A stretch of DNA of 32,000 bases from Desulfobulbus propionicus DSM 2032 (GCF_000186885.1 NC_014972.1:1500001-1532000); one strand, 5' to 3'. Positions 8,882 to 25,497 are shown, counted from the stretch's first letter. Notes: generated from the sequence alone by a model not told the origin. Translations and numbers: made by a program.

Positions 8882-9526
8882 ATGAACCTTGGTTTTCTCG
8901 CCAAATTGCTGCCGCCGCCGGAAAACAAATTCTATCAGTATTTCGAGGAGGCCGCCGAGGTCTGTGAACTCTCCTCCCAGCTGTTTTACCAAATTGTCCA
9001 TTCCGATTTGAAGGAACGGGAGGAATATCTCATCCACGCCAAGACCTACAAGCGGCGGGCGGTGGTTGCCCTGGAGGGCAGCCTGGCGCTGCTCAACGCC
9101 TCGTTCATCACCCCCATCGACCGGGAAGACATCCAGTTGATCACCTCCAACCTCTACAAGAGCACCAAGGTCATTCTCAAGGCCTGCGTGAACCTCCGCA
9201 TTTACAAGATCGAGGCTTACAATGAAATTGTCAAGAAACAGGCCGAGATCCTGATCAAGTCGGCGGAGGAGTTGCGCACCATCATCTCGATGTTGAAAAA
9301 TAACGCCTCGCTCGAAGACATCACCGACTGCAACTCACGGATCAAGGATATCGAGAATCGGGGCGACGAGATTCTGTTCACCGCCACCGAAGAAATCTTT
9401 TCCGGCAAATACGACGCGCTCTATGTGCTCAAGCTGCGGGATATTTACAAGGGGATCGAGAACGCCCTCGATATCTGCTCGGTCATTTCCGATCTGATCC
9501 TCAATATCGCCCTCAAACACAGATAA
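8882..9526 (+). CDS. DUF47 / PhoU-like phosphate transport regulator (YkaA family)
   Basis: Start at MNLGFLAKLLPPPENKFYQYFEE. All-helical 214-aa protein immediately upstream of a PiT transporter, which is the conserved DUF47-Pit pairing. Confidence 0.8.
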   Translation: MNLGFLAKLLPPPENKFYQYFEEAAEVCELSSQLFYQIVHSDLKEREEYLIHAKTYKRRAVVALEGSLALLNASFITPIDREDIQLITSNLYKSTKVILKACVNLRIYKIEAYNEIVKKQAEILIKSAEELRTIISMLKNNASLEDITDCNSRIKDIENRGDEILFTATEEIFSGKYDALYVLKLRDIYKGIENALDICSVISDLILNIALKHR

Positions 9527-9602
9527 CTTTCTCCATCATTTTTCCGCACGCGGCAACCACCCTTGCCGCGTCTGCCTGTCACGGAAAAGAGGACGTGCAT
9601 TC

Positions 9603-10586: not shown

Positions 10587-10877
10587 AGCGCTGCGCCGTT
10601 CTGCTGAGCAGGCCGGCGCAACCATTTCCGAGCCAATCGATGATTGTGTCCCTGGTCGGAAGCAACGGCCAATGACGTGCCGGCATTCTCCGGCATCCTT
10701 CTTCCACTGATTCTCTCCCACCCGTCTTCCGCGAGAGCGGCGTCAATCCTTCCCTTTCGTGGTCCGGCGGCAAATCCCACAAGCCACAGCCAGTCAATCC
10801 TCTCCATCCCGGCACATTGCTCGTCCTGAACTTTGTCTGTAAACAGAAGAATGCGGCCAACAATGTGATAGAGTATT

Positions 10878-11660
10878 ATGAAAGCACTAGGCAGTCGGAG
10901 GGAGGAGAATGCAATGAACTGGCAAGCGATTGTGCTCGTGACAATGGGTCTGATGCTAACGGTGCATGATGCCTGGGCTGACAAGGACAGGGAGGAGAAG
11001 ATGCGAACAGCACGAAAACGGATGGTACAGGAAATCGAGGTGGATGTGATGGAAACCTCGAGGTACATCGGTCGTGGTCAACTCAGCGCGGAAGTCATGC
11101 GGGTGATGGAGGAAGTGCCCCGGCATGAATTTGTCCCGTCGTATGAGCAGGGGGCGGCGTATCTCAACCGTCCGTTGCCGATCGGCTATGGACAGACCAT
11201 TTCTCAGCCCTACATTGTGGCGCTGATGACCGATCTGCTGGCTGTTTCCAAGGAGGGCAAAATTCTTGAGGTGGGAGCAGGTTCAGGCTACCAGGCCGCA
11301 GTGTTGTCCCGCTTGGTCAACGAAGTGCATTCAATTGAAATCATTCCGGAGTTGGCCAAGGAATGCCGGGAACGGCTGGCGCGCTTGGGCTACGCCAACG
11401 TCACCATCCACCAAGGCGATGGATACTACGGACTGCAAAGTGAAGCCCCATTCGATGCCATCGTGGTCACCGCCGCCGCCACTTCCATCCCGCCGCCCCT
11501 GGTCCAGCAGTTGAAACCGGGCGGCCGCCTGGTCATCCCGGTGGGCACGCCGTTTGCCGTGCAGCATCTGATGCTGGTTGAAAAGAATGAACAGGGAGAG
11601 ATTGCCATGCGTCAGGTACTACCCGTGCAGTTCGTGCCGCTGACCGGAAAGCGTGAGTGA
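10878..11660 (+). CDS. pcm: Protein-L-isoaspartate O-methyltransferase with an N-terminal signal/anchor sequence
   Basis: PCMT motifs present: VPRHEFVP, GYGQTISQPYIVALMTDLL, the SAM site ILEVGAGSGYQAAVLS, and DAIVVTAAA. The alternative start MNWQ at 10914 gives a signal-like MNWQAIVLVTMGLMLTVHDAWA. Confidence 0.9.
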   Translation: MKALGSRREENAMNWQAIVLVTMGLMLTVHDAWADKDREEKMRTARKRMVQEIEVDVMETSRYIGRGQLSAEVMRVMEEVPRHEFVPSYEQGAAYLNRPLPIGYGQTISQPYIVALMTDLLAVSKEGKILEVGAGSGYQAAVLSRLVNEVHSIEIIPELAKECRERLARLGYANVTIHQGDGYYGLQSEAPFDAIVVTAAATSIPPPLVQQLKPGGRLVIPVGTPFAVQHLMLVEKNEQGEIAMRQVLPVQFVPLTGKRE

Positions 11661-14408: not shown

Positions 14409-14484
14409 GGCCCCATCGTCTAGTGGCCTAGGACATCGGCCTCTCACGCCGGTAACAGGGGTTCGAGTCCCCTTGGGGTCACCA
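14409..14484 (+). tRNA. tRNA-Glu, anticodon CUC, CCA encoded
   Basis: Hand-folded cloverleaf: acceptor GGCCCCA/TGGGGTC, D-stem GTCT/GGAC, anticodon stem TCGGC/GCCGG with loop CTCTCAC, T-arm AGGGG-TTCGAGT-CCCCT, discriminator A, then CCA. 76 nt. Confidence 0.9.
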
Positions 14485-14486
14485 AG
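14438..14486. repeat. attL: 49-bp direct repeat (3' half of tRNA-Glu), identical to 25377-25425
   Basis: GGCCTCTCACGCCGGTAACAGGGGTTCGAGTCCCCTTGGGGTCACCAAG occurs identically at both coordinates. The flanking bases differ on both sides. Confidence 0.9.
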
Positions 14487-14510
14487 AATATCAGCTAGTT
14501 AGCTAGTCTG

Positions 14511-15584
14511 TTATACTCCGAGAGCTTGGTGATGTACTTTTGATGTACTTTTTGTCTCGGAATCCTTTAAACCGGGGAGTGCGGCCAGCACTTCCCGGTT
14601 TTCTTTTTTCAGCCGGTGAATATACCGCTGAGTGGTAGCCAAGCTGGTGTGGCGGAGCATGTATTGAATCTCGACCAAAGGCACATTCTGTGCCGCCAGG
14701 ATCGAGGCGAACAGGTGCCGGATGCCATGGAACCCAAAAGGTTTGACCCCCGCTTTCTTGCATAACCGTTTCAACCAGTGCTGGCGGTACTGATAGGAAA
14801 GTTTCTGTTCTCTGATAAAGACATGCTCTTTGATGTCGCAGCTTTTCTTTCTGTGCCGCAACAACCATTCAACAAGATCGTCTTTGACGCTCAACCACTG
14901 TGAGCGCCATTCCCCGACCTTGTTCTTTCTCCAACTCAGCCTTATTCGCTTGCGGAAAAAATCCACATCAGCCCAAGTGAGACGAAAGAGCTCGTCCCGG
15001 CGGGCTCCGGTCTGCAAGTAGCAGTAAAGCATCAGCTTGTCTTGATCGTCCTCGATGATGTGAAAGATCTTCCAAAAATCATCAAGCGTTGGAACGTATC
15101 TTTCAACCCGCTCCGAGGCGAATTTTTCCACCTTGGAAAACGGGTTGTCGATGGGGAGGTCAAGAAACTTCACTCCCCAGGACCAAGCCGCCGACAAGTT
15201 TTTCCTGTCTTTGTTGGCCGCGTTCCCGGATCGGCTGACAGATTGCCTTTGCAAAGCCTTTTGGACCTGCAGGGCAGTCAATCGATTAGCCGATTCTTTC
15301 GGGTTAATGCCAGGACAGGCAAAGAGTTGCCGAAAAGCTATTCGTTTTTCGTCAAACGTCTTGCCGGTAAAATTCTGCTCTGCATGCCGCAGGTATTCCG
15401 TGGCCCAATCAAGCAAGCAGACCGTAAGGGTCTTTTGTTCCGCTGGTTCGGTTGGCCTTTCGGCTTCCCACAGAAGCGCATCCTTCTTGGTTGCGAAGCA
15501 CTTCCGTTCCTTCTTGTTCCCGTTGAATCGTTGACCCATCCACGGAAATCTGTCCTTGTTTTTGTTCGGGTTTTTGTACGCCAT
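14511..15584 (-). CDS. Tyrosine-type site-specific integrase
   Basis: 357 aa. Catalytic residues are in context: TGARRDELFRLTWADV (Arg), HGIRHLFAS (HxxR), LRHTSLATTQRYIH (His/Tyr). Adjacent to attL. Confidence 0.9.
   Translation of the reverse strand: MAYKNPNKNKDRFPWMGQRFNGNKKERKCFATKKDALLWEAERPTEPAEQKTLTVCLLDWATEYLRHAEQNFTGKTFDEKRIAFRQLFACPGINPKESANRLTALQVQKALQRQSVSRSGNAANKDRKNLSAAWSWGVKFLDLPIDNPFSKVEKFASERVERYVPTLDDFWKIFHIIEDDQDKLMLYCYLQTGARRDELFRLTWADVDFFRKRIRLSWRKNKVGEWRSQWLSVKDDLVEWLLRHRKKSCDIKEHVFIREQKLSYQYRQHWLKRLCKKAGVKPFGFHGIRHLFASILAAQNVPLVEIQYMLRHTSLATTQRYIHRLKKENREVLAALPGLKDSETKSTSKVHHQALGV
14530..14552. repeat. Tandem 11-bp repeat (TGATGTACTTTTGATGTACTTTT), candidate integrase arm-type site; an identical copy lies at 25266-25288
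   Basis: An exact 23-bp match near both island ends, in the same orientation: 44 bp inside attL and 89 bp inside attR. Confidence 0.55.
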
Positions 15585-15732
15585 AATTCATAACCTCGTT
15601 GCGTGGAAATCTCCAAGAACGTGGCCCCAGGCGCACCCCTCCAAGCCTTTCGAGACCATACCGCTGGAGAACCCTTTTCTCAACGCGGAAGTATTCACAA
15701 ACTTCCTGTAACGTCATCATTTCGGGAAGCAT
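15409..15732 (-). CDS. Excisionase / AlpA-like helix-turn-helix DNA-binding protein (3' end uncertain)
   Basis: N-terminus MMTLQEVCEYFRVEKRVLQRYGLERLGGVRLGPRSWRFPRNEV fits the HTH_17/excisionase pattern. The ORF reads 176 nt into the integrase gene in another frame. Confidence 0.6.
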   Translation of the reverse strand: MLPEMMTLQEVCEYFRVEKRVLQRYGLERLGGVRLGPRSWRFPRNEVMNYGVQKPEQKQGQISVDGSTIQREQEGTEVLRNQEGCASVGSRKANRTSGTKDPYGLLA

Positions 15733-15769
15733 TTTTTATAACCGTGAAAATTTATGACCATTTTTATAA

Positions 15770-15937
15770 CTAAAACACCGGCAACCGCATTTGCCGATTA
15801 GCGGCGGGTTGTTTTTCTTCACGGACGGCGGCTTTGATCCGGCGGGCACGTTCGGCAATGGCGGGCATGTACTCAGCCCCGAGGGCCTTGTTGCCCATCA
15901 GGCCCCGCCGGGGTGTGGTGAAGATCGAAGATTTCAT
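15770..15937 (-). CDS. Hypothetical 55-aa basic protein (not in the ORF track)
   Basis: Own translation: MKSSIFTTPRRGLMGNKALGAEYMPAIAERARRIKAAVREEKQPAANRQMRLPVF. ATG lies 2 nt after the Rep stop on the same strand. There is no homology argument. Confidence 0.25.
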   Translation of the reverse strand: MKSSIFTTPRRGLMGNKALGAEYMPAIAERARRIKAAVREEKQPAANRQMRLPVF

Positions 15938-15939
15938 AC

Positions 15940-17442
15940 CTACCCGGCAAGCGTTAGCCTGAACTCGTTTCTCTTGGTGATCATCTTTTCTCGGAAGGCT
16001 GCTTCATCCTCGAAAAAGGCGTGCAGGTCCTCCTCAATAATGTCCTTGCAGAGATACACTATCTTGTCGATGTCATCGGGCTCCACTTCCAGGGAGGCGC
16101 AGACCGACATCAGGATTCCCCGCGCCTGCTTGCGGAGCATGACGATATCCTTGTGCTTGACCGCATGGGTGCGGATGTAGCCGAATACCCCGGTCCACAC
16201 CACGGCCTGCACCTTCTGCCAGAACTCTGAGACCTTGGCCTTGGTCTGGTTGTGATTGCGGTTGACCGGGCTTTCGGTGTGCCGGGTCCATTCGGTGGTC
16301 AGATAGGCCCAGAGACTTTTTAGGGAGTTGACTAAATCGCAGACCGTGTTGATCCTGTTGCCTTCCCGATCTGAGAACTCACGGAGCTTGGGTCGGCGGA
16401 GTTGGTATTCAATCCGGGTTACGGGCTGTTCGTCGTAGGTGTTAACGCCCCATATTTCGGCAAAGACCTGCTGCTTGTTGGTGGCTCGTTTTCTCTTCAA
16501 TTCCAGAACCTTGTCATAGCCACGAAACATCATGCCGTCGCTGCCAATGGTGATGCCAGAAAACTTGCGGTTGGAGTAATGGCGGTTAAATTCCAGTTCT
16601 TCAGGGTCAGGCTCTCGTTTTGTGACTTTGAGACCTCCATATTCATCTTCGTCACGGGCCAAGGCGATCCAATGGCAACGATTTTCCAGGTCTGTGGTTT
16701 TGATATCGACACCGACGAAGTCAGCGGCGAGATGTACTTCGGACACCCGTTCCTTGACCACCTTGCCGCCGTAGCAGGCGAGGAAGGTTTTCACCCGGTC
16801 GTAGATGGCGAAGAAGCCCGGCGACCAGCAGGACAGGGAGCCGATTTCCAAACGGCAGTTGGGGATTTCACCGTTTGCTTTCCTGCGGTTGAACATCAGG
16901 GTGATGTCGCCGGAACGGAGGCGGAAGGTATACATCTTGGCCCCGGTGCGGTAGAGATTCCAGTCAAAGCCGTTTTCCTTGATCACCGGGATAGAGTCCT
17001 TTTCCGTATCCTGGACCTGCTTTTTCATCGACTCGAGAATCCCGAGGAAATTGTTGATGAGCGGATTCCATTCAATCCAGAAAGACACCTTCAAAAAGTC
17101 GAGTCCGCGAAACGGCGAGTCCCGTACTACTGGCAAACCACTTGTTAATCGGGCTTGTGGTTCGGGGCCGGCGGGCTGTTCCGGGGTGGTGCGCACCCGG
17201 ACCGGTCCGGGGCCAAGGGGCGGCGGCTCGGTGGGGCGTACCCGGATCGGCGCGGCGTTGCGATGGACAAAGAACGGATAGCGATGGTTGTAACGGTAAT
17301 CCTCCAGGGGGATTTCCTGGAGATAGTCGGGCTCGGGTGCCCTGAAGGTGGGAATGTTGGTAAGATCGACCGTCTTGCCCTGGAGCACGGCGCGGAGCTT
17401 TTGCGAAAGGGGGTCCTTGGATGGGCGGCGAGAATAATACAT
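15940..17442 (-). CDS. Rolling-circle replication initiator (Rep_trans / RstA / gpII-like)
   Basis: 500 aa. Motifs match my recollection of the replication-initiation-factor family: LDFLKVSFWIEW, VSEVHLAADFVGVD, FSGITIGSDGMMFRGYDKVLELKRK, VTRIEYQLRRPKL. It also has a roughly 115-aa Pro-rich N-terminal extension. Confidence 0.7.
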   Translation of the reverse strand: MYYSRRPSKDPLSQKLRAVLQGKTVDLTNIPTFRAPEPDYLQEIPLEDYRYNHRYPFFVHRNAAPIRVRPTEPPPLGPGPVRVRTTPEQPAGPEPQARLTSGLPVVRDSPFRGLDFLKVSFWIEWNPLINNFLGILESMKKQVQDTEKDSIPVIKENGFDWNLYRTGAKMYTFRLRSGDITLMFNRRKANGEIPNCRLEIGSLSCWSPGFFAIYDRVKTFLACYGGKVVKERVSEVHLAADFVGVDIKTTDLENRCHWIALARDEDEYGGLKVTKREPDPEELEFNRHYSNRKFSGITIGSDGMMFRGYDKVLELKRKRATNKQQVFAEIWGVNTYDEQPVTRIEYQLRRPKLREFSDREGNRINTVCDLVNSLKSLWAYLTTEWTRHTESPVNRNHNQTKAKVSEFWQKVQAVVWTGVFGYIRTHAVKHKDIVMLRKQARGILMSVCASLEVEPDDIDKIVYLCKDIIEEDLHAFFEDEAAFREKMITKRNEFRLTLAG

Positions 17443-17454
17443 GATTGTGCTCCT

Positions 17455-17859
17455 TTAATAGGTGAAGTACCCACGACCATTGCATGTAAGACAACTTCCT
17501 TCGTCTCCACCATCATAGGTGCAAATACCAGTGCCATCGCAGCATGGACAAGTCTCCCTTTGCTTGGCATGATTGTGGTCAATTTGTCGGTAATATGCAG
17601 GCGAATGGGGAGAAGGTTGGTTAACCCAGTGACCATTAACGAAATCTATTTTGCCCTGGTAGATGTCATCGTTCTTCTCTGCCCAGCATAGATATCCAGG
17701 ACAATCAGTAGTCAGAGAACCTTCTAAAAGGCCGCAAACTCGGCAGACAGCAAGCCCGCCGTCGCAGATGGGACAAGTACCCGGTTCGAGGCAATTCGTA
17801 TGCTCTATGAATATATGCTTCATGTTTCCATCCTTCTTCTCTAATTGGTGCATGGTCAT
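17455..17859 (-). CDS. Cys-rich zinc-finger protein with DnaJ-type CxxCxGxG repeats; function unknown
   Basis: 134 aa, possibly starting at M13 (17823). Contains CPICDGGLAVCRVCG and CPCCDGTGICTYDGGDEGSCLTCNGRGY. Ends 12 nt upstream of the Rep start. Confidence 0.55.
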   Translation of the reverse strand: MTMHQLEKKDGNMKHIFIEHTNCLEPGTCPICDGGLAVCRVCGLLEGSLTTDCPGYLCWAEKNDDIYQGKIDFVNGHWVNQPSPHSPAYYRQIDHNHAKQRETCPCCDGTGICTYDGGDEGSCLTCNGRGYFTY

Positions 17860-17983
17860 TCCTATCGAATCAGTTCATTGCAAAAAACTAACGCGCTATC
17901 GCTTGTTTCCTTCACAAGGTTCCTTCAAAAGTCGGGAAACTGCCCCCGACTTTCAAAGCGAACCTTATGAAGGCAAGAAATAA

Positions 17984-18364
17984 TTACTTGGATAGGGAAA
18001 GGTCTGATGATTCATCAGCGCACCGGCACGAATAATGATTTTCAAATGGCTGGAAGTCCTGACCAATGCAGGAAAAACGGAGCATCTTGCCGCGATCCTG
18101 GCAGGACCTTTCGCAAATGGAGAGATATTCACGACACGATTTAGATTCACGGACCCGTTCCTTGGCACTGTAATGGCGAGCATAGGGGAATTCTCCGGGC
18201 ATCACCGGGGAGTCAGAAGGCTTTGGATCAGGGGACGGAGAAGAAGGCGAAGTCTGTTGAGGCGGAGAAGGTAACCGGTCATAAGACACAGTACTTTTGC
18301 AAAACCCTTGATTAGTGGAGAAAATGAAAAAAACGGTAGCCGCATAAACACATGGTGATTTCAT
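17984..18364 (-). CDS. Small exported or membrane-anchored Cys-rich protein (126 aa)
   Basis: Start at MKSPCVYAATVFFIFSTNQGF (hydrophobic N-terminus) with GAGG 8 nt upstream. A Pro/Ser linker (PSPPQQTSPSSPSPDPKPSDSP) is followed by a C-terminal domain with 6-7 Cys. The gene starts 7 nt after the Zot stop. Confidence 0.55.
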   Translation of the reverse strand: MKSPCVYAATVFFIFSTNQGFCKSTVSYDRLPSPPQQTSPSSPSPDPKPSDSPVMPGEFPYARHYSAKERVRESKSCREYLSICERSCQDRGKMLRFSCIGQDFQPFENHYSCRCADESSDLSLSK

Positions 18365-18371
18365 AGGAACC

Positions 18372-19178
18372 TCAATAATAGGAGATAACGGTGCCTGGAG
18401 CGAGGCGGGGGCGAAACATCGGAAAAACGATTGACCGAGAATCGGAGGAACCTGTTTGCCGGGAAACGTTGCGTTGATGTTCCAATGGTGGCGGCACGGC
18501 GGAAAAACTGAACATTTCGAACGAATCGTACAGATCAGCAATTTTTTTGTTCAAGGGCTGGACCCACGTTTTCGCTTTCATTGCCTTGCTACCGCCCATG
18601 TTCGCATATTGGCGAATAGCGAGAAAACAAGGGTATGGACTCATTTTGATCGATATGAACGGGATAGGAAGTTTGACGCGAGTGAAATTGCGGAAGAAGG
18701 TTTCATACTCGACAAGAAAACGAATCTGCTTGTCTATCATCTCGATATTGTGAGCAATCAAGATGAAGTCGAGCTTCATTTTGCGGTGCTGGGTGAAGAT
18801 TTCCAAAAAATCAGAGTTCTTGCCCCAATTGCGCGAATTGAAATAGAATTGGCATTCATCGAGAATAACGAGGGCTTTGCCCTCTCGTTGTTCACGAAAT
18901 TTTCCCCGAACAAGGCCAGGTGTAACCGCAGAAAGCTGATAAATCGAATCAACGGAACCAAGGAAGAAACAACGGCTGGTTACATCATCAATAAATTCTT
19001 GCCTGGTTTTTCGGCCGATTTTAATTTGTATGGAACGATCCGCAAGACGTTCGGCCCAATCCGATACCAACCGAAAATTGGTGGCCAATACTCCACCGTC
19101 AAGCAAGTGCATAATGCCATCAAAAAGGGCGGTACAGGACTTGCCGGAACCCGGAACACCGCAATAAAGATCAATCAT
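18372..19178 (-). CDS. Zot / pI-like filamentous-phage assembly ATPase (short form, 268 aa)
   Basis: Start at MIDLYCGVPGSGKS (Walker A). Walker B is ALVILDECQ. The Zot-type N-terminal domain layout is present. ATGA overlap with the upstream pVI-like ORF (19175-19178). No obvious TM segment. Confidence 0.85.
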   Translation of the reverse strand: MIDLYCGVPGSGKSCTALFDGIMHLLDGGVLATNFRLVSDWAERLADRSIQIKIGRKTRQEFIDDVTSRCFFLGSVDSIYQLSAVTPGLVRGKFREQREGKALVILDECQFYFNSRNWGKNSDFLEIFTQHRKMKLDFILIAHNIEMIDKQIRFLVEYETFFRNFTRVKLPIPFISIKMSPYPCFLAIRQYANMGGSKAMKAKTWVQPLNKKIADLYDSFEMFSFSAVPPPLEHQRNVSRQTGSSDSRSIVFPMFRPRLAPGTVISYY

Positions 19179-19424
19179 TTTGCAATCCTCACAAACCGAA
19201 GAAGAGGACCGTATACGAAAGAAATGCCCATGTTCACAACAATGATGGAGACACAGAAAACAAAATGATCTACAGGAAAAATCCAATTAAGAGTGGGAAC
19301 TATCGGAAAACTTGACAAGACAGCAGAAGGAGCCGGAATAGTATAATCAGGTAACAATCCAGCAATAAAATCAATTATGCCAATTGCAATGTTTGCAATT
19401 AAATCAAGAATCCACCAAAATAAA

Positions 19425-20741
19425 GGGAATCTTGAAATTTAGCTTAGCAAGCCCCGGCACCATTCACCGACAATTTTATTCACAAAGACCATGCTCTTCT
19501 GGCTTTTAATCCGATCGGTTTTGCACCTTGGCGGTGCCTCGCTCTGTGCTCGATGGCGGTCTTTTGCCAGTTTGCCGCACTCCGGGCACACTTCACCTGC
19601 TTGCAGCCAGAAGCATCCCCATTCGGTCAATGTTATACACCAAGTTGCGCAAGCCGATCTTTGCTCGGGCTCGGGCTATGCCGATCGTGCGCAACAGTAC
19701 ATTCCCCGCTCGCTGCGCCTGTACACCAAAGACATGCTCGATTCGCGAACGGACCTTGGATCTGGTTCGGTTGCCCTCCTGTTCTCTGGGCGTCAAGGGA
19801 CGATTGCGGCTCCCCTTGCGTTGGATGTGTTCACGAAAACCATCCTGGCCGAGGCGCTCCAATCGATCCGCGGATCGATAGGCCGAATCCGCCCAGACGT
19901 CCTTGCTCGTATTGTCGGCAAGGAGTTGCTCGAACACGTTGCTGTCGTGCAGGGCCGCATCGGTCACGGCATAGCTGCGAATCAACTTGTGCTTCACATC
20001 CACCGAGATGTGGTTCTTGTAGCCGTAATAAGACTTGCCGTTCTTCTTGGTCCAGCGCGCGTCCGCGTCTTTTCTACGCCGCTTGTTCTCGGACCAGTTC
20101 TCCGGGATGTCGCCCTCTTTGATCCGGGCATTTTCCTCCCGGCTGTTCCGCTGTTTGGGCACGCTGACAATGCTGGCATCCACGATCTGCCCTTTCATCG
20201 CCATGAAGCCGTTGTCCCGGAGATGCGCATCGAAGGTCGCAAACAGTTCCTCTACAATGCCGGCCTTGACGAGGTCTTCCCGAAAACGCCAGATGGTGGT
20301 GGCATCGGGAACCTTCTGGCTGATGTGCAGACCAAGAAAGCGCCCAAAGGAGTGCCGGTCGAGAATCTGAAACTCGGTCGCGTCATCCGACAGATTGTAC
20401 AACGACTGCAGGATGAGAATCTTAAACAGCAGGATGACGTCGTACCCCTTCGGCCCGACCGTAGACTGCCGGCCCTTGTCCCTGGCCTTTTCGAGCGCAG
20501 GACGAAACATCTCCCAGTTGACCGTCTCGTTGATCTTGGCAAGTGGGTCGCCGTTCTTGTCGATTTTGTGCAATCGGTCCTGCAAATCAAAAAAGCCGGG
20601 CTGGATCATGGCTGATCTCCATCGGGTGATGGTTGGCGGATGCGGCCTTAAAACGATGAAGAATGTAACATATTTACACAAAATCAACAATTTGATAGTT
20701 AAACTTGTCGCAGGCTACTGCATTTAATTTTCAAGAAACCC
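19425..20741 (-). mobile_element. IS5-family insertion sequence (1317 bp)
   Basis: Terminal inverted repeats GGGAATCTTGAAATTT (19425-) and GGGTTTCTTGAAAATT (reverse complement of -20741). Flanking 4-bp direct repeat TAAA at 19421-19424 and 20742-20745. A single DDE transposase ORF. Host-like GC content inside an AT-rich phage. Confidence 0.8.
19593..20609 (-). CDS. IS5-family DDE transposase
   Basis: Start at MIQPGFFDLQDRLHKIDKNGDPL. Contains an InsH-type N-terminal region (ILLFKILILQSLYNLSDDATEFQILDRHSFGRFLGL) and DDE-region motifs (IVDASIV, DARWTKKNGKSYYGYKNH, WADSAYRS, RSRIEHVFG). Confidence 0.9.
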   Translation of the reverse strand: MIQPGFFDLQDRLHKIDKNGDPLAKINETVNWEMFRPALEKARDKGRQSTVGPKGYDVILLFKILILQSLYNLSDDATEFQILDRHSFGRFLGLHISQKVPDATTIWRFREDLVKAGIVEELFATFDAHLRDNGFMAMKGQIVDASIVSVPKQRNSREENARIKEGDIPENWSENKRRRKDADARWTKKNGKSYYGYKNHISVDVKHKLIRSYAVTDAALHDSNVFEQLLADNTSKDVWADSAYRSADRLERLGQDGFREHIQRKGSRNRPLTPREQEGNRTRSKVRSRIEHVFGVQAQRAGNVLLRTIGIARARAKIGLRNLVYNIDRMGMLLAASR

Positions 20742-20793
20742 TAAATTTTTGAAAGCAATTACAATAAGATTTCCAAGTTCTTGAAGTCCCATT

Positions 20794-22311
20794 TCATTTT
20801 CCTCGTAAATCAACGCCAACGTAAAGATAAATTAATAGAACAATGGTTGAGATTGTGATGCCAAGTGCAAAAAGAGACCTAACCATTTGAGCAATGTTAT
20901 CAAATGAACTTAGATCAATTGTTATATTTTTACCGTATATAGAATATGTGTAAACGGGTGCTGATCCTGAACCTTTGAAGTCAGAATAAATATCTTTGAA
21001 TGTTGATCGAAGAGAAAAGGGGAATTTTGTGGTGAATTGGGAAAAATGTGAAGCTATACCTTCATAATCAAACTTCCCCTCAACATATTGATAGGAACCT
21101 GTCCAGCCATCACTATTATCAACGTCTCCATCTCCATCGGTATCTGATCCAGAAACGGAGGTAGAAGAACCGCCACCGGTAGAAGTGTCACCATCACCAT
21201 AATAATTATTAGTTGTATTGTTTGTTGTTGAATTATCAATAGTTTGATTGACTTCATTAAAATCGCTTGCAAGTTCCCACTGTCCATTAGACATACACTC
21301 GCAAATCATGTGTTTATTTTCACTACAAGCAAAATTTTTTATTAAAGCAGAAGAACCGCATGAGGAAGAACATTTTGATTTGAGATCATCACAAGTTTTA
21401 TCTAAATCCATGAGTCCTACATCTTCGCCTTTTTGCTCAGTGGTGGGAAAAACTTGTTCTGCGTCATCAGCAGTAGTGTTTTCAGTAAGTATTTCGGAAT
21501 CACCACTATCAGAAGTATCTTTTTCACAAACTGAGTCGGTACATTGGTCAACTGAAGAAACAGTGTTACATTTTATTGTGTGGAGCTTATCAGGAGTGGC
21601 AAGATAGGTCACACGACCACCAGCGGCGAAAAATGATTTTTCATCAATATAAGAAGGAAATGAACCGATAGAATAAACAAGACCAGGAAACTTTTCTGGA
21701 TAATTATAAGCGGAATAGATGCTGATCATATCGTAGTTATCATTTTGAGCAGAATAACTAATGATACCAGCAACAACAGTTCCGTCTGATAATTCGTACC
21801 AACCTTTTAGATATTTTGTTCCGGCAACAGTAGAATCATACGGGTTATCATCACAAACATCACAAAGACCATCAGAATCGGAATCGAGACAATCAACAGT
21901 GCAACCAGGTTTTGCGGCAAAAAAAGACGCAGTTACATTTGAAGAAACAGAAATAATTCCTTGTGAAAGAAGAGTAGAAAAGCACTCGGGTGTTACAGTC
22001 ATCAATCCACCGATAACAGAATAGGCCCATCGTGTTCCATTCCAAAACATTCCGTAAAGGGTTATTTTCCGCCAAGTATAACCGGAGGTAATAGTAACAG
22101 CGGAATAACTCATTTCGGTCTCGCCAATTGTCAAACGAACATCACCGACAAGATTGGTCTTAAGAGTCGAGCTCTCTACAACGCCGCCATCAATATAGAA
22201 CCACTGGGTACAAGAACCGGGGTAACCAGGTTCAACAGAATCAGCTTTGCAATTCAGGCAAAGTGCAAAAACTGAAACAAACCCGAGAAGAAACCAGAGG
22301 AAATTTTTCAT
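20794..22311 (-). CDS. pIII-like adsorption / minor coat protein
   Basis: 505 aa. Signal peptide MKNFLWFLLGFVSVFALCLNCKA. Cys-rich N-terminal domains. A DSDSDGLCDVCDDNP calcium-type repeat. A Gly/Ser/Asp/Thr-rich linker (GDGDTSTGGGSSTSVSGSDTDGDGDVDNSDG). C-terminal membrane anchor LFALGITISTIVLLIYLYVGVDLRGK, preceded by VYTYSIYGKNITIDLS, which resembles the M13 g3p C-terminus. Located directly after the coat gene. Confidence 0.7.
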   Translation of the reverse strand: MKNFLWFLLGFVSVFALCLNCKADSVEPGYPGSCTQWFYIDGGVVESSTLKTNLVGDVRLTIGETEMSYSAVTITSGYTWRKITLYGMFWNGTRWAYSVIGGLMTVTPECFSTLLSQGIISVSSNVTASFFAAKPGCTVDCLDSDSDGLCDVCDDNPYDSTVAGTKYLKGWYELSDGTVVAGIISYSAQNDNYDMISIYSAYNYPEKFPGLVYSIGSFPSYIDEKSFFAAGGRVTYLATPDKLHTIKCNTVSSVDQCTDSVCEKDTSDSGDSEILTENTTADDAEQVFPTTEQKGEDVGLMDLDKTCDDLKSKCSSSCGSSALIKNFACSENKHMICECMSNGQWELASDFNEVNQTIDNSTTNNTTNNYYGDGDTSTGGGSSTSVSGSDTDGDGDVDNSDGWTGSYQYVEGKFDYEGIASHFSQFTTKFPFSLRSTFKDIYSDFKGSGSAPVYTYSIYGKNITIDLSSFDNIAQMVRSLFALGITISTIVLLIYLYVGVDLRGK

Positions 22312-22333
22312 GATGAACGCAGGCAGGAAGGAA

Positions 22334-22353
22334 GGGGAGCCCGAAGGCTCCCC
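22334..22353 (-). terminator. GC hairpin with a UUCG tetraloop between the coat gene and the pIII-like gene (candidate attenuating terminator)
   Basis: GGGGAGCC-TTCG-GGCTCCCC on the minus strand, a perfect 8-bp stem, 6 nt after the coat stop. The tract that follows is pyrimidine-rich but is not a clean U-run. It occupies the position of the Ff terminator after gene VIII. Confidence 0.45.
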
Positions 22354-22359
22354 AGGTAG

Positions 22360-22503
22360 TTAATGACTACGAACCAGCATTTTGAAAAAGCCAATGCCGA
22401 TGACTACACCAAGGATGGTGCCCCAAATCGGCAGACCGGCGGTCAATGCGGTTCCAAGCTGTGTGGTGATCTCGGTTACTGCGTCAGCATACGATACGGT
22501 CAT
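22360..22503 (-). CDS. Major coat protein candidate (pVIII-like, 47 aa, no signal peptide; Pf3-type)
   Basis: Own translation: MTVSYADAVTEITTQLGTALTAGLPIWGTILGVVIGIGFFKMLVRSH. Acidic N-terminus, one hydrophobic helix, basic C-terminus. GGAGAA lies 8 nt upstream. Not in the ORF track because it is shorter than 60 aa. Confidence 0.65.
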   Translation of the reverse strand: MTVSYADAVTEITTQLGTALTAGLPIWGTILGVVIGIGFFKMLVRSH

Positions 22504-22526
22504 ATCTGCGTTCTCCAGTTGAGGTT

Positions 22527-22658
22527 TTAAAAAGCCCTATGGTTGTATGTGAACATTCCCCGGAAAACACCCCATACCCAGGCCGTCGAGTATGTGAACA
22601 ACCAAGTGAAAATTCCGAGGCTTAAACCGCCAACAAAGAGAGTCATATTAAGCGCCAT
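22527..22658 (-). CDS. Small hydrophobic protein (43 aa), pVII/pIX-like minor coat candidate
   Basis: Own translation: MALNMTLFVGGLSLGIFTWLFTYSTAWVWGVFRGMFTYNHRAF. ATG lies 1 nt after the upstream stop (TAGAATG). Confidence 0.4.
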   Translation of the reverse strand: MALNMTLFVGGLSLGIFTWLFTYSTAWVWGVFRGMFTYNHRAF

Positions 22659-22659
22659 T

Positions 22660-22788
22660 CTACGACCTCCATGTAACAGCGATTATCAAAGCGATGCCTA
22701 ACCCCAGGGCAAAGGATGAGACATCGACAAAGAATCCTTGTATGCTCGTTAATAGGTTGATGATTGTTTCCGCTTGCTCGCTCGTCAT
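22660..22788 (-). CDS. Small membrane protein (42 aa), minor or alternative coat candidate
   Basis: MTSEQAETIINLLTSIQGFFVDVSSFALGLGIALIIAVTWRS: acidic N-terminus, TM helix, basic end. This is the internal start of track ORF 22660-22893. The SD is weak. Confidence 0.4.
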   Translation of the reverse strand: MTSEQAETIINLLTSIQGFFVDVSSFALGLGIALIIAVTWRS

Positions 22789-22819
22789 GGCGATACCTAC
22801 AAAACCGGCAAACCCGCCG

Positions 22820-23005
22820 TTAAAGGCCGGTCTCGTCCCCTGCGACGGCGCGCGGGGCCGAGGCCGGGCCGTCAACGGCTCGGTTGCGATCAAAAACCGG
22901 GTGTTGATGGAGGCGCCGTATGAGTCTTAGGAAAAATCCAACGCAATCGTAAATCAACAGCGCCATCAAACAGCCTATGAACGATGCAAAAACAAGCGGT
23001 TCCAT
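22820..23005 (-). CDS. Hypothetical 61-aa single-TM protein
   Basis: MEPLVFASFIGCLMALLIYDCVGFFLRLIRRLHQ... The ATG overlaps the stop of the upstream gene (TAATG at 23003-23007). The C-terminal third is encoded by an unusually GC-rich patch. Confidence 0.35.
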   Translation of the reverse strand: MEPLVFASFIGCLMALLIYDCVGFFLRLIRRLHQHPVFDRNRAVDGPASAPRAVAGDETGL

Positions 23006-23298
23006 TATTTGACCGCCCAAAGATAATGGGGATAATGCCAACGGCCTTTTGAATCCTTCCATGGACGACATTGAACCTCGACGGAAATACTCAAATCGTC
23101 GCCAGGATTGCCGAGCTTGGACCGCGACATGATGCAATATTTGTTTGGATGCGAATAAGCGTCAGGTGCTGGGGTGGCCAATATGGATTCGATGATAGGA
23201 AAATTTTCCTTATCGGTGCCCACCTGTTGCGAGGCTTGAATACGGCCGGAAAGCCAGAGGGTGCCAGATTTAACTGGATTTTTTTCGTTGGTTGACAT
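23005..23298 (-). CDS. Candidate ssDNA-binding protein (pV-like) assigned by position and size only; 97 aa
   Basis: Start at MSTNEKNPVKSGTLWLSGRIQ with AAGGAG 8 nt upstream. It is the first sizeable gene before the small coat genes, as gene V is in Ff. I cannot assert any sequence-level match. Confidence 0.4.
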   Translation of the reverse strand: MSTNEKNPVKSGTLWLSGRIQASQQVGTDKENFPIIESILATPAPDAYSHPNKYCIMSRSKLGNPGDDLSISVEVQCRPWKDSKGRWHYPHYLWAVK

Positions 23299-23347
23299 GG
23301 TTTCAGCTCCTTGTTTTTTTGAATTTGTTGTGCATGACGGTGCTAAA

Positions 23348-23515
23348 TCATTGTTTGAAGCGGATAGTAAGATTGCGTTCCCTGTCCCGGAATCGTGACT
23401 CGACCAAGCGAAATTGCGGAGAGAGCATGGCGAATTGTGTGCAGAGCTCAGCATCAGAGAAACGCATGATTCTTTTCTTGAGTTCGTGAATCGCGGCGGG
23501 TTGGTTTGGTTTCAT
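23348..23515 (-). CDS. Hypothetical 55-aa protein, first ORF of the leftward phage operon (not in the ORF track)
   Basis: Own translation: MKPNQPAAIHELKKRIMRFSDAELCTQFAMLSPQFRLVESRFRDRERNLTIRFKQ. It faces the repressor gene across a 79-bp AT-rich region. Confidence 0.3.
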   Translation of the reverse strand: MKPNQPAAIHELKKRIMRFSDAELCTQFAMLSPQFRLVESRFRDRERNLTIRFKQ

Positions 23516-23594
23516 TTCGCGTTTTTCTTTAAAGTTTGATGTGTAGTAAAATAATAATTTCTATATATAGACATTTAATAGCGAGAATGTCGGC
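23516..23594. promoter_or_regulatory. Divergent promoter/operator region (candidate lysogeny switch)
   Basis: A 79-bp, very AT-rich spacer (…TAGTAAAATAATAATTTCTATATATAGACATTTAATAGCG…) between the XRE repressor (+) and the leftward phage operon (-). Confidence 0.45.
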
Positions 23595-24044
23595 ATGTCA
23601 ACAAAAATAAATGAAGAAGTGAAAAAAATAGGAAATAGACTAAAAGAATTCAGAGTTGAAAATGGTTTAACACTTGTTCAACTATCTGAATTAATAGGAA
23701 TTTCTCATGGATCATTGTCGGGGCTTGAGAATAACAAATCGAAACCATCAGCAGAAACTTTATCGAATTTATGTCTATATACAGAAATTGACATTGTTTG
23801 GTTGTTAACCGGAAGGAGGGAAAAGCCTATAGAAAGAAAAATACCGACAAGAAAATTTGAAATTTTTGAACAAGCAGAGGAGTGGCTACGAGAAGAAGTA
23901 CAAAAAAATCCGAAGAAAGAAATATGGTTCGAAGTAGAATTTGAGAAAACGTTTCAGGAGTTCAAAGAATGGAAAGAAGGAAAGGAAGGGAGAAGAAAAC
24001 TTGAATCGGAGGCTCTATCGTATAAAATAGCAGGAAATAACTAA
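23595..24044 (+). CDS. XRE/cI-family helix-turn-helix repressor
   Basis: N-terminal HTH_3 pattern: IGNRLKEFRVENGLTLVQLSELIGISHGSLSGLENNKSKPSAETLSNLCLYTEIDIVWLLTG. Followed by a charged C-terminal half. Confidence 0.85.
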   Translation: MSTKINEEVKKIGNRLKEFRVENGLTLVQLSELIGISHGSLSGLENNKSKPSAETLSNLCLYTEIDIVWLLTGRREKPIERKIPTRKFEIFEQAEEWLREEVQKNPKKEIWFEVEFEKTFQEFKEWKEGKEGRRKLESEALSYKIAGNN

Positions 24045-24062
24045 GTCGCAATAAGGTATAAC

Positions 24063-24374
24063 ATGGACGCATCGTTAGATAATCTCAACAACGAACCGGA
24101 CCAAGACAGAGAAAAATCAGAAAAAGAAATCAAGAAAAAGCTCAAAAGAATGGGGAATCCGGTATGGGGTTTTCTGTGGAGATTTTTCCTCTGTTGCGCT
24201 TTGATCGATATTCCCTTTTGGGCATATTTTCACTTCGTCAAAGGCGTGCCGATCCTGGTAGGGCTGCAACAAATAAGAAACGAAGTCCAAGAAAAATTTT
24301 ATACGCCAAAAGAACCCGAGCAGAAAAAAATTGTGAAATTCGATTTTCCACAGCCAACAAGAAAACCATCGTGA
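24063..24374 (+). CDS. Hypothetical membrane protein (103 aa)
   Basis: ORF with a charged N-terminus and a hydrophobic core (VWGFLWRFFLCCALIDIPFWAYFHFVKGVPILVGL). Lies downstream of the repressor on the same strand. Confidence 0.45.
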   Translation: MDASLDNLNNEPDQDREKSEKEIKKKLKRMGNPVWGFLWRFFLCCALIDIPFWAYFHFVKGVPILVGLQQIRNEVQEKFYTPKEPEQKKIVKFDFPQPTRKPS

Positions 24375-24401
24375 CAGCTAAAAAAGCAATCTCCGGAGGA
24401 G

Positions 24402-24599
24402 ATGCAAAAAAGAAACGCTGAAATGGCTATCAAAGCGGCAAGAGCTGAAGCAGAAAGAAAAGAGGCATTACGAAGACAAAGAGAAAGATACTCAGGGCCG
24501 ATATTCAGCTGGAGAAACGAGAAAGGGAATAAGGTTTATTCAAATGTAGGATTCCCACAAGACAGGCCATATACAGAAGCGACAATTGAGTACAAATGA
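24402..24599 (+). CDS. Hypothetical 65-aa protein (C-terminus faintly DUF4124-like)
   Basis: ORF only. A basic helical N-terminus is followed by FSWRNEKGNKVYSNVGFP, which resembles the W-x-D/N-x-x-G-x-x-x-YS motif. Confidence 0.35.
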   Translation: MQKRNAEMAIKAARAEAERKEALRRQRERYSGPIFSWRNEKGNKVYSNVGFPQDRPYTEATIEYK

Positions 24600-24649
24600 A
24601 GGCGTTGGAGGTGTCAGCGCTAAGGGAAAAGGAAACAATTCATTTTATA

Positions 24650-24728
24650 ATGTATCCCGCATGTATCACGGTTCCCCTGAAAGCCTTGATTTGTAAGGCG
24701 GGAGACGGGTTCAACTCCTGGGGCCAAG
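24650..24728 (+). repeat. Degenerate third copy of the att region (decayed arm-type repeats plus a decayed tRNA-Glu T-arm/acceptor)
   Basis: ATGTATCCCGC-ATGTATCACGG (11-bp period, compare GATGTACTTTT x2) is followed by ACGGGTTCAACTCCTGGGGCCAAG. That second stretch aligns to AGGGGTTCGAGTCCCCTTGGGGTCACCAAG of the 49-bp repeat, with about 21 of 24 positions matching and small gaps. Confidence 0.5.
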
Positions 24729-24791
24729 AAATGAGAGGTGAGGGAGAAACAACACCCGCAATTTGAACATGCAAGTTTATGCAAGTGTAAC

Positions 24792-24829
24792 GAAAAACGG
24801 CCACTCAGCTAGTATCAGCTAAGTGGCCG
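24792..24829 (-). terminator. Rho-independent terminator (minus-strand orientation)
   Basis: 13-bp stem CGGCCACTTAGCT/AGCTGAGTGGCCG, followed by TTTTT on the minus strand. One stem position is G-U on the minus-strand RNA but a C-A mismatch on the plus strand, which favours minus-strand function. Confidence 0.7.
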
Positions 24830-24837
24830 TAATTATT

Positions 24838-24867
24838 TGGTACCCGGAACGAGAATCGAACTCGTAC
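24838..24867 (-). pseudogene. 3' fragment of a non-Glu tRNA (T-arm, acceptor strand and ACCA), with no 5' half
   Basis: The minus strand reads GTACGAG-TTCGATT-CTCGT-TCCGGGT-A-CCA. The acceptor end resembles tRNA-Phe-type ...TCCGGGCACCA (from memory). No complementary 5' acceptor strand or canonical anticodon arm lies upstream. Confidence 0.6.
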
Positions 24868-24868
24868 A

Positions 24869-24925
24869 GCCAAAGGCCGAGGGATTAAAACGGCCTTGCG
24901 CCTAGCCCGAAACCTCACGGAGTAG
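24869..24925 (+). pseudogene. C-terminal stub of a RelE/ParE-superfamily 'addiction module killer' toxin (HigB-type partner of the downstream antitoxin)
   Basis: The frame ending at TAG 24923-24925 reads ...AKGRGIKTALRLARNLTE*, resembling the conserved toxin C-terminus (..KDIK.AK.LA..L). The stop lies 7 nt before the antitoxin ATG. The frame is closed by TAA just upstream of 24839, so at most 28 codons remain. Confidence 0.45.
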
Positions 24926-24932
24926 CCTGAAT

Positions 24933-25232
24933 ATGAGCAAAACTATTACCACACGCTATGACGTCAGCGAGCACCTCAGAACACCAGAGGAAATGGCCGC
25001 TTATCTTGAGGCATGTTTCGAGGAAGCCAATGGAGACGCCGCCTTTATTGCCAAGGCTCTCGGCGATATTGCCCGAGCTAAAGGAATGACACAGGTTGCA
25101 CGAGATGCAGGCCTGTCTCGTGAAAGCCTGTATAAAGCTCTCTCCGGCGAACGTAGCCCAGGATTTGATACAATCCTCAAAGTCATCGGTGCGCTTGGTT
25201 TGAAATTGCACGCTGAACCCAATCACGCATGA
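24933..25232 (+). CDS. higA: Addiction-module antidote protein (HigA family, HTH)
   Basis: 99 aa: MSKTITTRYDVSEHLRTPEEMAAYLEACFEEANGDAAFIAKALGDIARAKGMTQVARDAGLSRESLYKALSGERSPGFDTILKVIGALGLKLHAEP. This matches the characteristic pattern of the family. Confidence 0.85.
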   Translation: MSKTITTRYDVSEHLRTPEEMAAYLEACFEEANGDAAFIAKALGDIARAKGMTQVARDAGLSRESLYKALSGERSPGFDTILKVIGALGLKLHAEPNHA

Positions 25233-25265
25233 ATTGCCTTTGACGCTTGGTTAGTAACCATTTTT

Positions 25266-25288
25266 TGATGTACTTTTGATGTACTTTT
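25266..25288. repeat. Tandem 11-bp repeat, identical to 14530-14552 (candidate arm-type site on the attR side)
   Basis: TGATGTACTTTTGATGTACTTTT, an exact 23-bp match. Confidence 0.55.
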
Positions 25289-25376
25289 GAGGCAAAGTTA
25301 AAGCACATGAGCGTTTGATACGGCCTGTAACTATCTGAAAAACAAAGAAAAGGCTTTTTGGGGAACGCTCTTTTTA

Positions 25377-25425
25377 GGCCTCTCACGCCGGTAACAGGGG
25401 TTCGAGTCCCCTTGGGGTCACCAAG
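25377..25425. repeat. attR: displaced original 3' half of tRNA-Glu (49-bp repeat)
   Basis: Identical to 14438-14486. It is followed by the tRNA's own terminator at 25460-25497. Confidence 0.9.
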
Positions 25426-25459
25426 TATCTGGAAATACTTGGTGAAGCATTACACACGA

Positions 25460-25497
25460 CGCCTTGAGAGCAAATGCGCTTTCAAGGCGTTTTTTTT
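25460..25497 (+). terminator. Rho-independent terminator (native tRNA-Glu terminator)
   Basis: 12-bp stem CGCCTTGAGAGC/GCTTTCAAGGCG followed by T8. Confidence 0.8.

Follow-up and report, generated by a model that had tools for sequence, protein, structure and literature searches.

The tRNA-Glu(CUC) Locus

We analyzed a 32-kb window of the Desulfobulbus propionicus DSM 2032 genome, and all positions given here are coordinates of that window. We conclude with high confidence that a temperate filamentous phage (inovirus) occupies the stretch from 14487 to 25376, where it is integrated in tRNA-Glu(CUC). An integrase-bearing inovirus prophage at this gene had been proposed from an earlier inspection of the DNA alone (hereafter the sequence-only reading). 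This proposal is supported by a hidden Markov model (HMM) match of an assembly ATPase to the Zot family, a PHROG match of a small protein to single-stranded DNA (ssDNA)-binding proteins, synteny with the viral contig L024, and a tRNA-Glu core that related elements share. Related viral contigs are nine IMG/VR entries (L024-L032), to which we add one metagenome contig (L033). The insertion site comprises the following features.

14409-14484, plus strand: intact tRNA-Glu(CUC) gene (ARAGORN; Rfam, tRNA 58.8 bits)
14438-14486, plus strand: attL core, a 49-bp perfect direct repeat spanning the tRNA from the anticodon stem to the CCA end plus 2 nucleotides (nt)
14569-14601, plus strand: terminator-like hairpin (14-bp stem) with a T-run, 85 nt 3' of the rebuilt tRNA, lying antisense to the int gene's 3' end
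25377-25425, plus strand: attR core, the displaced 3' half of the original tRNA (repeat finder and sequence)
25458-25491, plus strand: strong hairpin followed by T8, directly 3' of the attR core

The 5' part of the intact tRNA gene is host DNA, and its 3' 47 nt lie inside the attL core. The repeat finder returned the two cores as a single direct-repeat family (14438-14489 and 25377-25428), with 49 bp of perfect identity followed by one mismatch, and a 25-nt piece of the core is present in exactly two copies in the window, against 0.00 expected by chance. Together with the ARAGORN and Rfam results, this confirms that two perfect 49-bp copies of the tRNA-Glu 3' half bracket the block. A tyrosine recombinase gene adjoins one of the two attachment (att) sites, and the repeats are 3' parts of a tRNA of which one copy is intact. 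ARAGORN also calls a tRNA at 25352-25423. We rejected this as a separate gene and regard it as merely the displaced tRNA-Glu 3' half, because its 5' part is phage DNA and Rfam is silent there. The hairpin with T8 beyond attR is best read as the original tRNA-Glu terminator, now cut off from its tRNA, and the hairpin at 14569-14601 may be its replacement. The sequence of this second hairpin is present in L033 too, where it may merely reflect conserved integrase coding sequence.

Excluding an insertion sequence (IS) that adds ∼1.3 kb, the element is 9,569 bp long (∼9.6 kb) and has a G+C content of 0.463, compared with 0.61 and 0.59 in the flanks, so the block is AT-richer than its surroundings (46% against 59-61%), as had been claimed. 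The genes differ widely in composition, with xre (0.33) and the pIII-like gene (0.38) at the extreme, followed by int (0.50), xis (0.51), and rep (0.56). In the mosaic composition described in the sequence-only reading, int, xis, and rep had been called host-like, and this does not hold; at 50-56% these are intermediate and lie below the 59-61% of the flanks. Within the left flank itself, the stretch 8500-11500 has a G+C content of 0.52-0.58, compared with 0.61-0.66 in the rest.

A Filamentous-Phage Structural Module

Leftward from the repressor gene, the minus strand carries an ordered set of small and large genes, given here in the direction of transcription with lengths in amino acids (aa).

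23005-23298, minus strand: pV-like ssDNA-binding protein, 97 aa (PHROG_8473, “single strand DNA binding protein,” E 4e-8)
22820-23005, minus strand: 61-aa protein with an N-terminal hydrophobic helix (PHROG_7006, E 6e-6)
22660-22788, minus strand: 42-aa protein with one hydrophobic helix (hydrophobicity; codon-position test)
22527-22658, minus strand: 43-aa hydrophobic protein, a pVII/pIX-type candidate (77% identical to L024)
22360-22503, minus strand: major coat protein, 47 aa (hydrophobic stretch at residues 17-44; near-threshold HMM matches)
22334-22353, minus strand: hairpin with an 8-bp G+C stem and a TTCG loop, between the coat and pIII-like genes
20794-22311, minus strand: pIII-like minor coat/adsorption protein, 505 aa (architecture and synteny)
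20746-20819, minus strand: N-terminal part of the pVI-like gene, which joins to 19424 in the reconstruction
19425-20741, minus strand: IS5-family insertion sequence, 1317 bp (transposase at 19593-20609)
19175-19424, minus strand: C-terminal part of the pVI-like gene, whose stop codon overlaps the Zot start (ATGA)
18372-19178, minus strand: Zot/pI-like assembly ATPase, 268 aa (PF05707, 52.8 bits, cut-off 20.3)
17984-18364, minus strand: 126-aa protein with a hydrophobic N terminus, a Pro/Ser linker, and a Cys-rich domain, beginning 8 nt after the Zot stop

The order of ssDNA-binding protein, small proteins, coat, hairpin, pIII-like protein, pVI-like protein, and Zot is the one claimed in the sequence-only reading. 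The ATPase is the most securely assigned member. Its PF05707 score lies well over the cut-off, and it also matches PHROG_197 (E 2e-18) and PHROG_1675 (E 2e-16), which are Zot and M13 protein I families. A tblastn search matched 84 phage records, the top matches listed being annotated as Zonula occludens toxin or ZOT, and both a Walker A motif (GVPGSGKS) and a Walker B-like motif (ILDECQ) are readable. L024 is the one contig with this structural module, at 85% identity for Zot, 87% for the coat, and 58% for residues 139-505 of the pIII-like protein, the N-terminal domain of which differs.

The pV-like gene has an AAGGAG ribosome-binding site, and its product is 74-80% identical to proteins of L025, L028, and L024; by sequence, it has no meaningful match among solved structures in the PDB. 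Its stop codon overlaps the start of the 61-aa gene (TAATG). The 42-, 43-, and 47-aa open reading frames (ORFs) and the end of the ssDNA-binding protein gene encode products with 77-87% identity to those of L024. Codon position 3 accounts for 19/29 of the nucleotide differences from L024 in the 42-aa ORF, 20/32 in the 43-aa ORF, 21/30 in the coat gene, and 23/34 in the ssDNA-binding protein gene end, with 129/187 in the Zot gene for comparison. About two-thirds of the differences thus fall at position 3, which is the mark of coding constraint on these small ORFs.

The 47-aa coat protein has no leader peptide and consists of an acidic N terminus, a hydrophobic core, and a basic C terminus. It scores 21.3 bits against Phage_Coat_B (cut-off 23.5) and matches PHROG_7106 (E 7e-4) and PHROG_1646 (E 6e-3); a sequence search against the PDB gave nothing meaningful. 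The HMM result alone would be inconclusive; the assignment as the coat also draws on the small size, the single hydrophobic helix, the coding constraint, and the position just upstream of the adsorption gene. Between these two genes, the hairpin GGGGAGCC-TTCG-GGCTCCCC lies in a 71-nt stretch around 22334-22353 that folds with −13.4 kcal/mol (z = −4.1). L024 has a counterpart at the same position with a partly different stem (z = −3.1), so a stable hairpin between coat and pIII-like genes, as first described, is borne out. By analogy with the terminator of Ff gene VIII, it probably lowers read-through into the minor-protein genes. The pIII-like protein itself comprises a hydrophobic N terminus (residues 1-23), a linker rich in G, S, D, and T, and a C-terminal anchor (residues 473-503). 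It has no HMM match in Pfam or PHROG, and a scan of viral contigs for its pattern gave no match. A protein search matched it on just one 3.1-kb contig, ending at the IS.

An IS5 Insertion Interrupts the pVI-like Gene

The IS lies in the pVI-like gene and is flanked by a 4-bp target duplication, TAAA, at 19421-19424 and 20742-20745. Its terminal inverted repeats, GGGAATCTTGAAATTTA and GGGTTTCTTGAAAATTA, are imperfect, and its transposase matches DDE_Tnp_1 (91 bits) and DUF772 (76.6 bits), as is characteristic of the IS5 family. Removal of the IS and one TAAA restores a single 107-aa ORF with two hydrophobic segments. The rebuilt protein is 66% identical over its full length to the uninterrupted syntenic ORF of L024, and this match covers the residues at the junction, KNLFWW. 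The target duplication and the restored ORF confirm the insertion that the sequence-only reading had described. At least 19 other contigs carry the identical transposase, in different surroundings, from which it follows that the IS is mobile on its own.

Completion and stabilization of the Ff virion require pVI. With its pVI-like gene split, the prophage can most likely no longer form complete infectious virions, and excision and replication may still be functional. We think it unlikely that the prophage is still fully productive, whether because the pVI-like protein is dispensable or because its fragments, or precise loss of the IS in some cells, suffice. Such a reading could draw on the intact state of all other genes, on a 60-aa C-terminal ORF that remains and keeps its ATGA coupling to Zot, and on the perfect att repeats and intact IS target duplication, which would make both events recent, so that loss of the IS could restore the gene. 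However, the ORF is split after residue 26 and moved 1.3 kb away from the upstream operon, and besides the textbook role of pVI in Ff virion completion and stability, the gene is kept intact in L024, with pVI-like ORFs at the same place in L025, L027, L031, L032, and L033. A prophage most likely disabled in virion production is the reading that we retain.

The Assembly ATPase and Its Cys-Rich Neighbor

The 268-aa ATPase contains no hydrophobic stretch of 19 residues and hence no transmembrane helix. Its homologues (P0122-P0131), down to 42% identity, are 256-299 aa long. A hydrophobic stretch is likewise missing from the Zot proteins of L024, L031, and L032 in a window scan, and from four further homologues inspected by eye, and it is present in those of L025 and L027. 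We considered a frameshift of Zot into an overlapping 185-aa ORF and rejected it: the 268-270-aa length and the C terminus are kept in L024 and in other homologues, and 8 nt beyond the Zot stop the downstream ORF begins at a GAGG-ATG start of its own. This downstream ORF encodes the 126-aa protein, whose Cys-rich domain is kept in eight of the nine related viral contigs (L024-L029, L031, and L032) at varying positions. Its homologue in L024 has a clear signal-peptide-like N terminus.

As a tentative suggestion, for which we would claim rather less than an even chance, the lineages of the D. propionicus element and L024 and of L031 and L032 may use a split assembly motor, consisting of an anchor-less ATPase and a small exported Cys-rich protein. 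The latter might supply the membrane and periplasmic part that is given by pI/pXI in Ff. If true, the split motor and the leaderless Pf3-like coat would together represent a distinct architecture of the inovirus export machine.

A Replication Initiator with a Predicted RepDE Fold

Two further minus-strand genes lie between the structural module and xis.

15940-17442, minus strand: rolling-circle replication initiator (Rep), 500 aa, Despr_1336 (PHROG_33635, “endonuclease,” E 8e-8; predicted fold)
17455-17859, minus strand: 134-aa Cys-rich (CxxC) protein, just upstream of rep

Rep is 100% identical to Despr_1336 of D. propionicus DSM 2032, which places the window on that chromosome. It has no Pfam match, and PF02486 (Rep_trans) was not found even at E ≤ 5. 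Among its homologues, only two of 31 reach E = 0.01 against PF02486, and the 120 homologues listed carry no precomputed Pfam domain. A search of the PDB by sequence with the Rep family profile found nothing. The UniProt name, “Replication initiation factor,” is a source label and was not counted as a test.

Structure prediction gave a different kind of result. The AlphaFold (AF2) model has a mean predicted local distance difference test (pLDDT) score of 72, with 80-94 in the core, a low-confidence N-terminal region of ∼110 residues, and a C-terminal helical extension. In a Foldseek search of the PDB, RepDE (4cwc/4cwe) was the best match (E 3.4e-7, probability 1.00), with a TM-score of 0.45 normalized to the target over 244 columns. 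These two entries are the only PDB matches with E < 0.001, and folds resembling the TATA-binding protein (TBP) come next. Tyr309-Asp310-Lys311 is invariant across the 31 homologues, and this YDK motif resembles the Tyr-containing active-site motif of RepC, to which it may correspond. Because the model matches the RepDE fold and PF02486 gives no match, we describe Rep as an initiator that is predicted to act like Rep_trans proteins and to have the RepD/RepDE fold, yet lies outside the Pfam family as defined. The Rep_trans assignment of the sequence-only reading is thus upheld by the predicted fold, but failed the Pfam HMM check.

The 134-aa protein contains several CxxC pairs, including a DnaJ-like CxxCxGxG motif. 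It has no family match and no homologue in the related loci. Other small Cys-containing ORFs lie upstream of rep in some relatives.

Integration and Repression

The left end of the element carries the integration genes, and paired short repeats lie a little inward of both att cores; the repressor is transcribed divergently from the structural operon.

14511-15584, minus strand: tyrosine integrase, 357 aa (PF00589, 91.6 bits; PHROG_1, E 4e-51)
15409-15732, minus strand: excisionase-like helix-turn-helix protein, 107-aa ORF, its 3' part overlapping int (HTH_17 and PHROG matches)
14531-14553, plus strand: two tandem 11-bp repeats, GATGTACTTTT ×2, 45 nt inside attL; putative P' arm
25267-25289, plus strand: two tandem 11-bp repeats, GATGTACTTTT ×2, 110 nt inside attR; putative P arm
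23595-24044, plus strand: XRE/cI-type repressor, 149 aa, transcribed away from the structural operon (HTH_19, 51.3 bits; HTH_3, 48.5 bits)
24063-24599, plus strand: two small genes, of 103 aa (one hydrophobic helix) and 65 aa, downstream of the repressor

The int gene ends 25 nt from the attL core. The integrase, like the IS5 transposase, scores above the Pfam cut-offs, and it is 75-78% identical to its homologues in L027 and L030-L032 and 80% identical to that in L033. The Xis-like ORF is kept in the same five contigs (L027 and L030-L033). It scores 24.1 bits against HTH_17 (cut-off 27) and matches PHROG_10045 (E 3e-7) and the PHROG_66 excisionase family (E 4e-4). The 11-bp motif occurs four times in the 32-kb window, as a pair at either end of the element, both pairs oriented alike, and nowhere else. 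L027 and L033 share this paired layout with the same motif, and L031 and L032 have another motif at both of their ends. From this distribution, the 11-bp repeats are very probably arm-type sites of the integrase.

The claimed divergent XRE repressor holds up, with HTH_19 and HTH_3 scores above the Pfam cut-offs and matches to many PHROG repressor families. Of the two small genes downstream of it, the 103-aa one has syntenic counterparts in L031 and L032 and the 65-aa one in L029, L031, and L032, at 39-51% identity.

Relatives and Occupancy of the Same Site

Rep is found at 62-66% identity in eight of the IMG/VR contigs, four of which also carry Int and Xis. In the relatives, the Int-Xis-Rep set is joined to at least three or four structural modules, among them those of the window/L024, L031/L032, and L025/L027/L028 types, and such modular exchange would account for the patchy G+C content of the element.

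The same tRNA-Glu core delimits L031 and L032, where it forms 49-nt terminal repeats, and L027 is bounded by a 61-nt repeat from a tRNA-Glu(UUC)-like 3' end. We rejected the possibility that these three contigs are circular genomes: the repeats at their ends match the tRNA-derived core exactly, which fits prophages trimmed at their att sites (cf. PMC6813254). In L033, the identical tRNA-Glu(CUC) is followed by int, xis, rep, Zot (325 aa, 68.5 bits), pVI- and pIII-sized ORFs, a CI-type repressor, and cargo, with a second att copy ∼9 kb away. This contig represents an independent occupancy of the same tRNA-Glu site.

Several searches bear on an unoccupied form of the site. In the genome collection, orthologues of a flanking 817-aa protein have at most 65% identity (nearest 63-65%), and none has a tRNA nearby. 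Synteny is not kept in these nearest genomes, so the collection is unable to provide an empty site. The junction between attR and the right flank had 0 matches in metagenomes, and exact-sequence look-ups of two left-flank proteins gave no match. In L034, unrelated DNA comes after the identical tRNA, and this contig is from another organism, with only 95 nt to compare. In L019 (1-5998), from a related Desulfobulbus metagenome-assembled genome, orthologues of the genes at 11657-14110 and 30333-31952 lie 4.1 kb apart, separated by a hydrolase-like ORF and a large repeat protein, with no tRNA. Since L019 carries unrelated genes there, the interval between these flank genes is variable among species.

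A Cargo Slot Near attR

The segment between the small genes and the right arm repeats contains the following features.

24600-25264, no strand: cargo slot, 665 bp, with a tRNA-Leu half, a terminator, and an orphan antidote gene
24836-24886, minus strand: tRNA-Leu(UAA)-like 3' half ending in CCA
24797-24830, minus strand: strong terminator of the tRNA-Leu-like half
24933-25232, plus strand: orphan HigA-like antidote gene (PF21716, 101.6 bits)

This slot has no DNA counterpart in the related elements. Upstream of the antidote gene, all frames of 24600-24932 are devoid of ORFs, leaving no toxin gene there, and the antidote gene is thus not part of an HI1419/HI1420 (HigBA-like) pair. Rfam returned nothing credible for the tRNA-Leu-like half at a permissive threshold. 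The same 51 nt, again as half a tRNA, occur at 6071-6121 of the IMG/VR contig L035, beside an unrelated tyrosine integrase, and the half has the look of a relic att junction that recombination captured from another integrative element. L033 has other cargo in the same slot near its attR (7770-8728), namely a DUF2726 protein (128.7 bits) and a BrnT ribonuclease toxin (78.4 bits).

The absence of any counterpart to these 665 bp, the tRNA-Leu-like half with its own terminator and its occurrence beside a foreign integrase, and an antidote gene separated from its toxin might suggest a tandem or composite arrangement, in which an inovirus is joined on the attR side to the remnant of a second island. 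We regard this as highly improbable, because only two copies of the tRNA-Glu core exist. In addition, the sequence from 25264 to 25376, beyond the odd segment and including the arm repeats, has homologues at the ends of L027, L031, L032, and L033, which places 24600-25264 inside one attP-bounded element. The different cargo of L033 is also consistent with a moron slot in which recombination with another element took place at some time. A single phage genome with variable cargo is the reading that we follow below.

An Integrated Inovirus and Its Proposed Life Cycle

The block has the features that define inoviruses (Tubulavirales): a pI/Zot ATPase, a small coat protein, a pV-like protein, and a rolling-circle replication initiator, in a genome whose 9,569 bp fall in the range of ∼5-15 kb and whose conserved module order is syntenic with L024. 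Among its long ORFs, only int, rep, zot, the transposase gene, and the pIII-like gene have a family match or a conserved homologue. These leave no room for a secretin, and none is encoded.

A number of points weigh against this interpretation. The element is known from its sequence, and no empty tRNA-Glu site from the same species was found in the genome and metagenome collections searched. The coat and Xis proteins both score slightly under their Pfam cut-offs, Rep has no sequence-level family assignment, and the Zot-like protein is without the transmembrane helix of canonical pI. The pIII-like, pVI-like, 42-aa, and 43-aa proteins were assigned by position, size, hydrophobicity, and synteny only, none of them having HMM support. 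Although the pIII-like, pVI-like, and small hydrophobic ORFs have no family assignment, a non-viral integrative island with a captured gene for a Zot-like ATPase is extremely improbable, given a complete ordered module under coding constraint in contigs of a viral collection and a rolling-circle initiator in a 9.6-kb element, a combination that fits an inovirus and nothing else known.

The history of the element can be read from its sequence. Integration duplicated the 49-nt 3' half of the tRNA, such that the phage copy rebuilds the gene at the int end and the host copy, with the terminator, lies at the far end. The IS came later, by precise insertion into the pVI-like gene with a 4-bp target duplication. 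We propose the following life cycle. In the lysogen, the XRE repressor would hold the leftward operon off. Upon induction, Int and Xis would bind at the core and at the paired 11-bp arm repeats, releasing a ∼9.6-kb circle, and the initiator with its predicted Rep_trans fold would nick a plus-strand origin and start rolling-circle replication. The 97-aa pV-like protein would coat the single strand, and the Zot-like ATPase would assemble the leaderless 47-aa coat and the minor proteins on the DNA, a step placed at the inner membrane. The filament would exit through a secretin of the host, since the element encodes none.

Comparison with Known Inoviruses

The module order of pV, small proteins, coat, hairpin, pIII, pVI, and pI, as well as the overlapping stop and start codons, is shared with the Ff phages (M13/fd/f1) and CTXphi. 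In contrast to the D. propionicus element, Ff phages are episomal and encode pIV, and CTXphi integrates by XerCD at dif. In both Ff and CTXphi, the arrangement also differs in that Rep here lies downstream of the Zot gene, beside xis and int. CTXphi is without pIV as well and exports through a host secretin. Rep resembles the pT181-type initiators RepC, RepD, and RepDE and the RstA protein of CTXphi (Rep_trans) in its predicted fold, and the TBP-like matches that follow RepDE fit this fold class. It differs from Rep_trans initiators by the missing PF02486 match, the low-confidence N-terminal region, and the C-terminal helical extension.

A close likeness is to the Pf prophages of Pseudomonas aeruginosa (Pf4/Pf5 type; Pf-tRNA-Gly, -Met, and -Sec groups), which likewise have their own tyrosine integrase, an HTH_17-type Xis, a tRNA 3' part as target, a repressor, and no pIV, and which also show the same integration module on different structural lineages. 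The coat has its best Pfam match to the Pf1-type Coat_B family. A leaderless coat is Pf3-like rather than Pf1-like. Unlike in Pf, the host here belongs to the Desulfobacterota, integration is into tRNA-Glu, a transmembrane helix is missing from the Zot-like ATPase, and an orphan antidote gene takes the place of the toxin-antitoxin morons. In the tblastn search with Zot against phages, no Pseudomonas was among the named organisms, and the best identity to any deposited phage was 34%.

Pf prophages have tyrosine integrases matched to sites in tRNA-Gly, tRNA-Met, or tRNA-Sec or in tmRNA, and HTH_17 excisionases, carry no pIV homologue, include toxin-antitoxin morons, and combine the same integration modules with two structural lineages (PMC7549136). 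In isolate genomes, Roux et al. (2019) counted 582 inovirus prophages whose att sites lie in a tRNA gene or next to an integrase, and they also reported both tyrosine and serine recombinases and 15 toxin-antitoxin sets (PMC6813254). The sequence-only reading had singled out as unusual the presence of an own tyrosine integrase and Xis with a tRNA target, the missing secretin, and the mosaic composition. All three points are ordinary among Pf-type and catalogued inoviruses: an integrase and Xis of their own, a tRNA target, and a missing pIV are normal in Pf phages.

The D. propionicus genome paper appears among the supplementary references of Roux et al. (2019), and the legend of their Table S2 explains that the publications belong to genomes with detected inoviruses (PMC6813254). 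Judging by this list and legend, the prophage described here was probably already catalogued in that study. It is a well-preserved yet ordinary member of a kind catalogued in the hundreds, and it leaves the knowledge of inoviruses unchanged, given that own integrases, tRNA targets, absent secretins, and toxin-antitoxin cargo have been documented at scale. Its value lies in being a cleanly delimited and almost intact inovirus in a cultured sulfate reducer, in which the att core, candidate arm sites, a cargo slot, and a dated, most likely inactivating IS are mapped, and it is a possible starting point for genetic tools or phage biology in the Desulfobulbaceae. It also illustrates how one Int-Xis-Rep module is swapped among different inovirus structural modules. 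The element resembles the cryptic inoviruses of Roux et al. (2019) in its detection through a pI-like ATPase and in its limits, set by direct repeats in a tRNA or beside an integrase, and it differs from their entries and those of IMG/VR (L024-L032) in its IS5 insertion and its private cargo segment.

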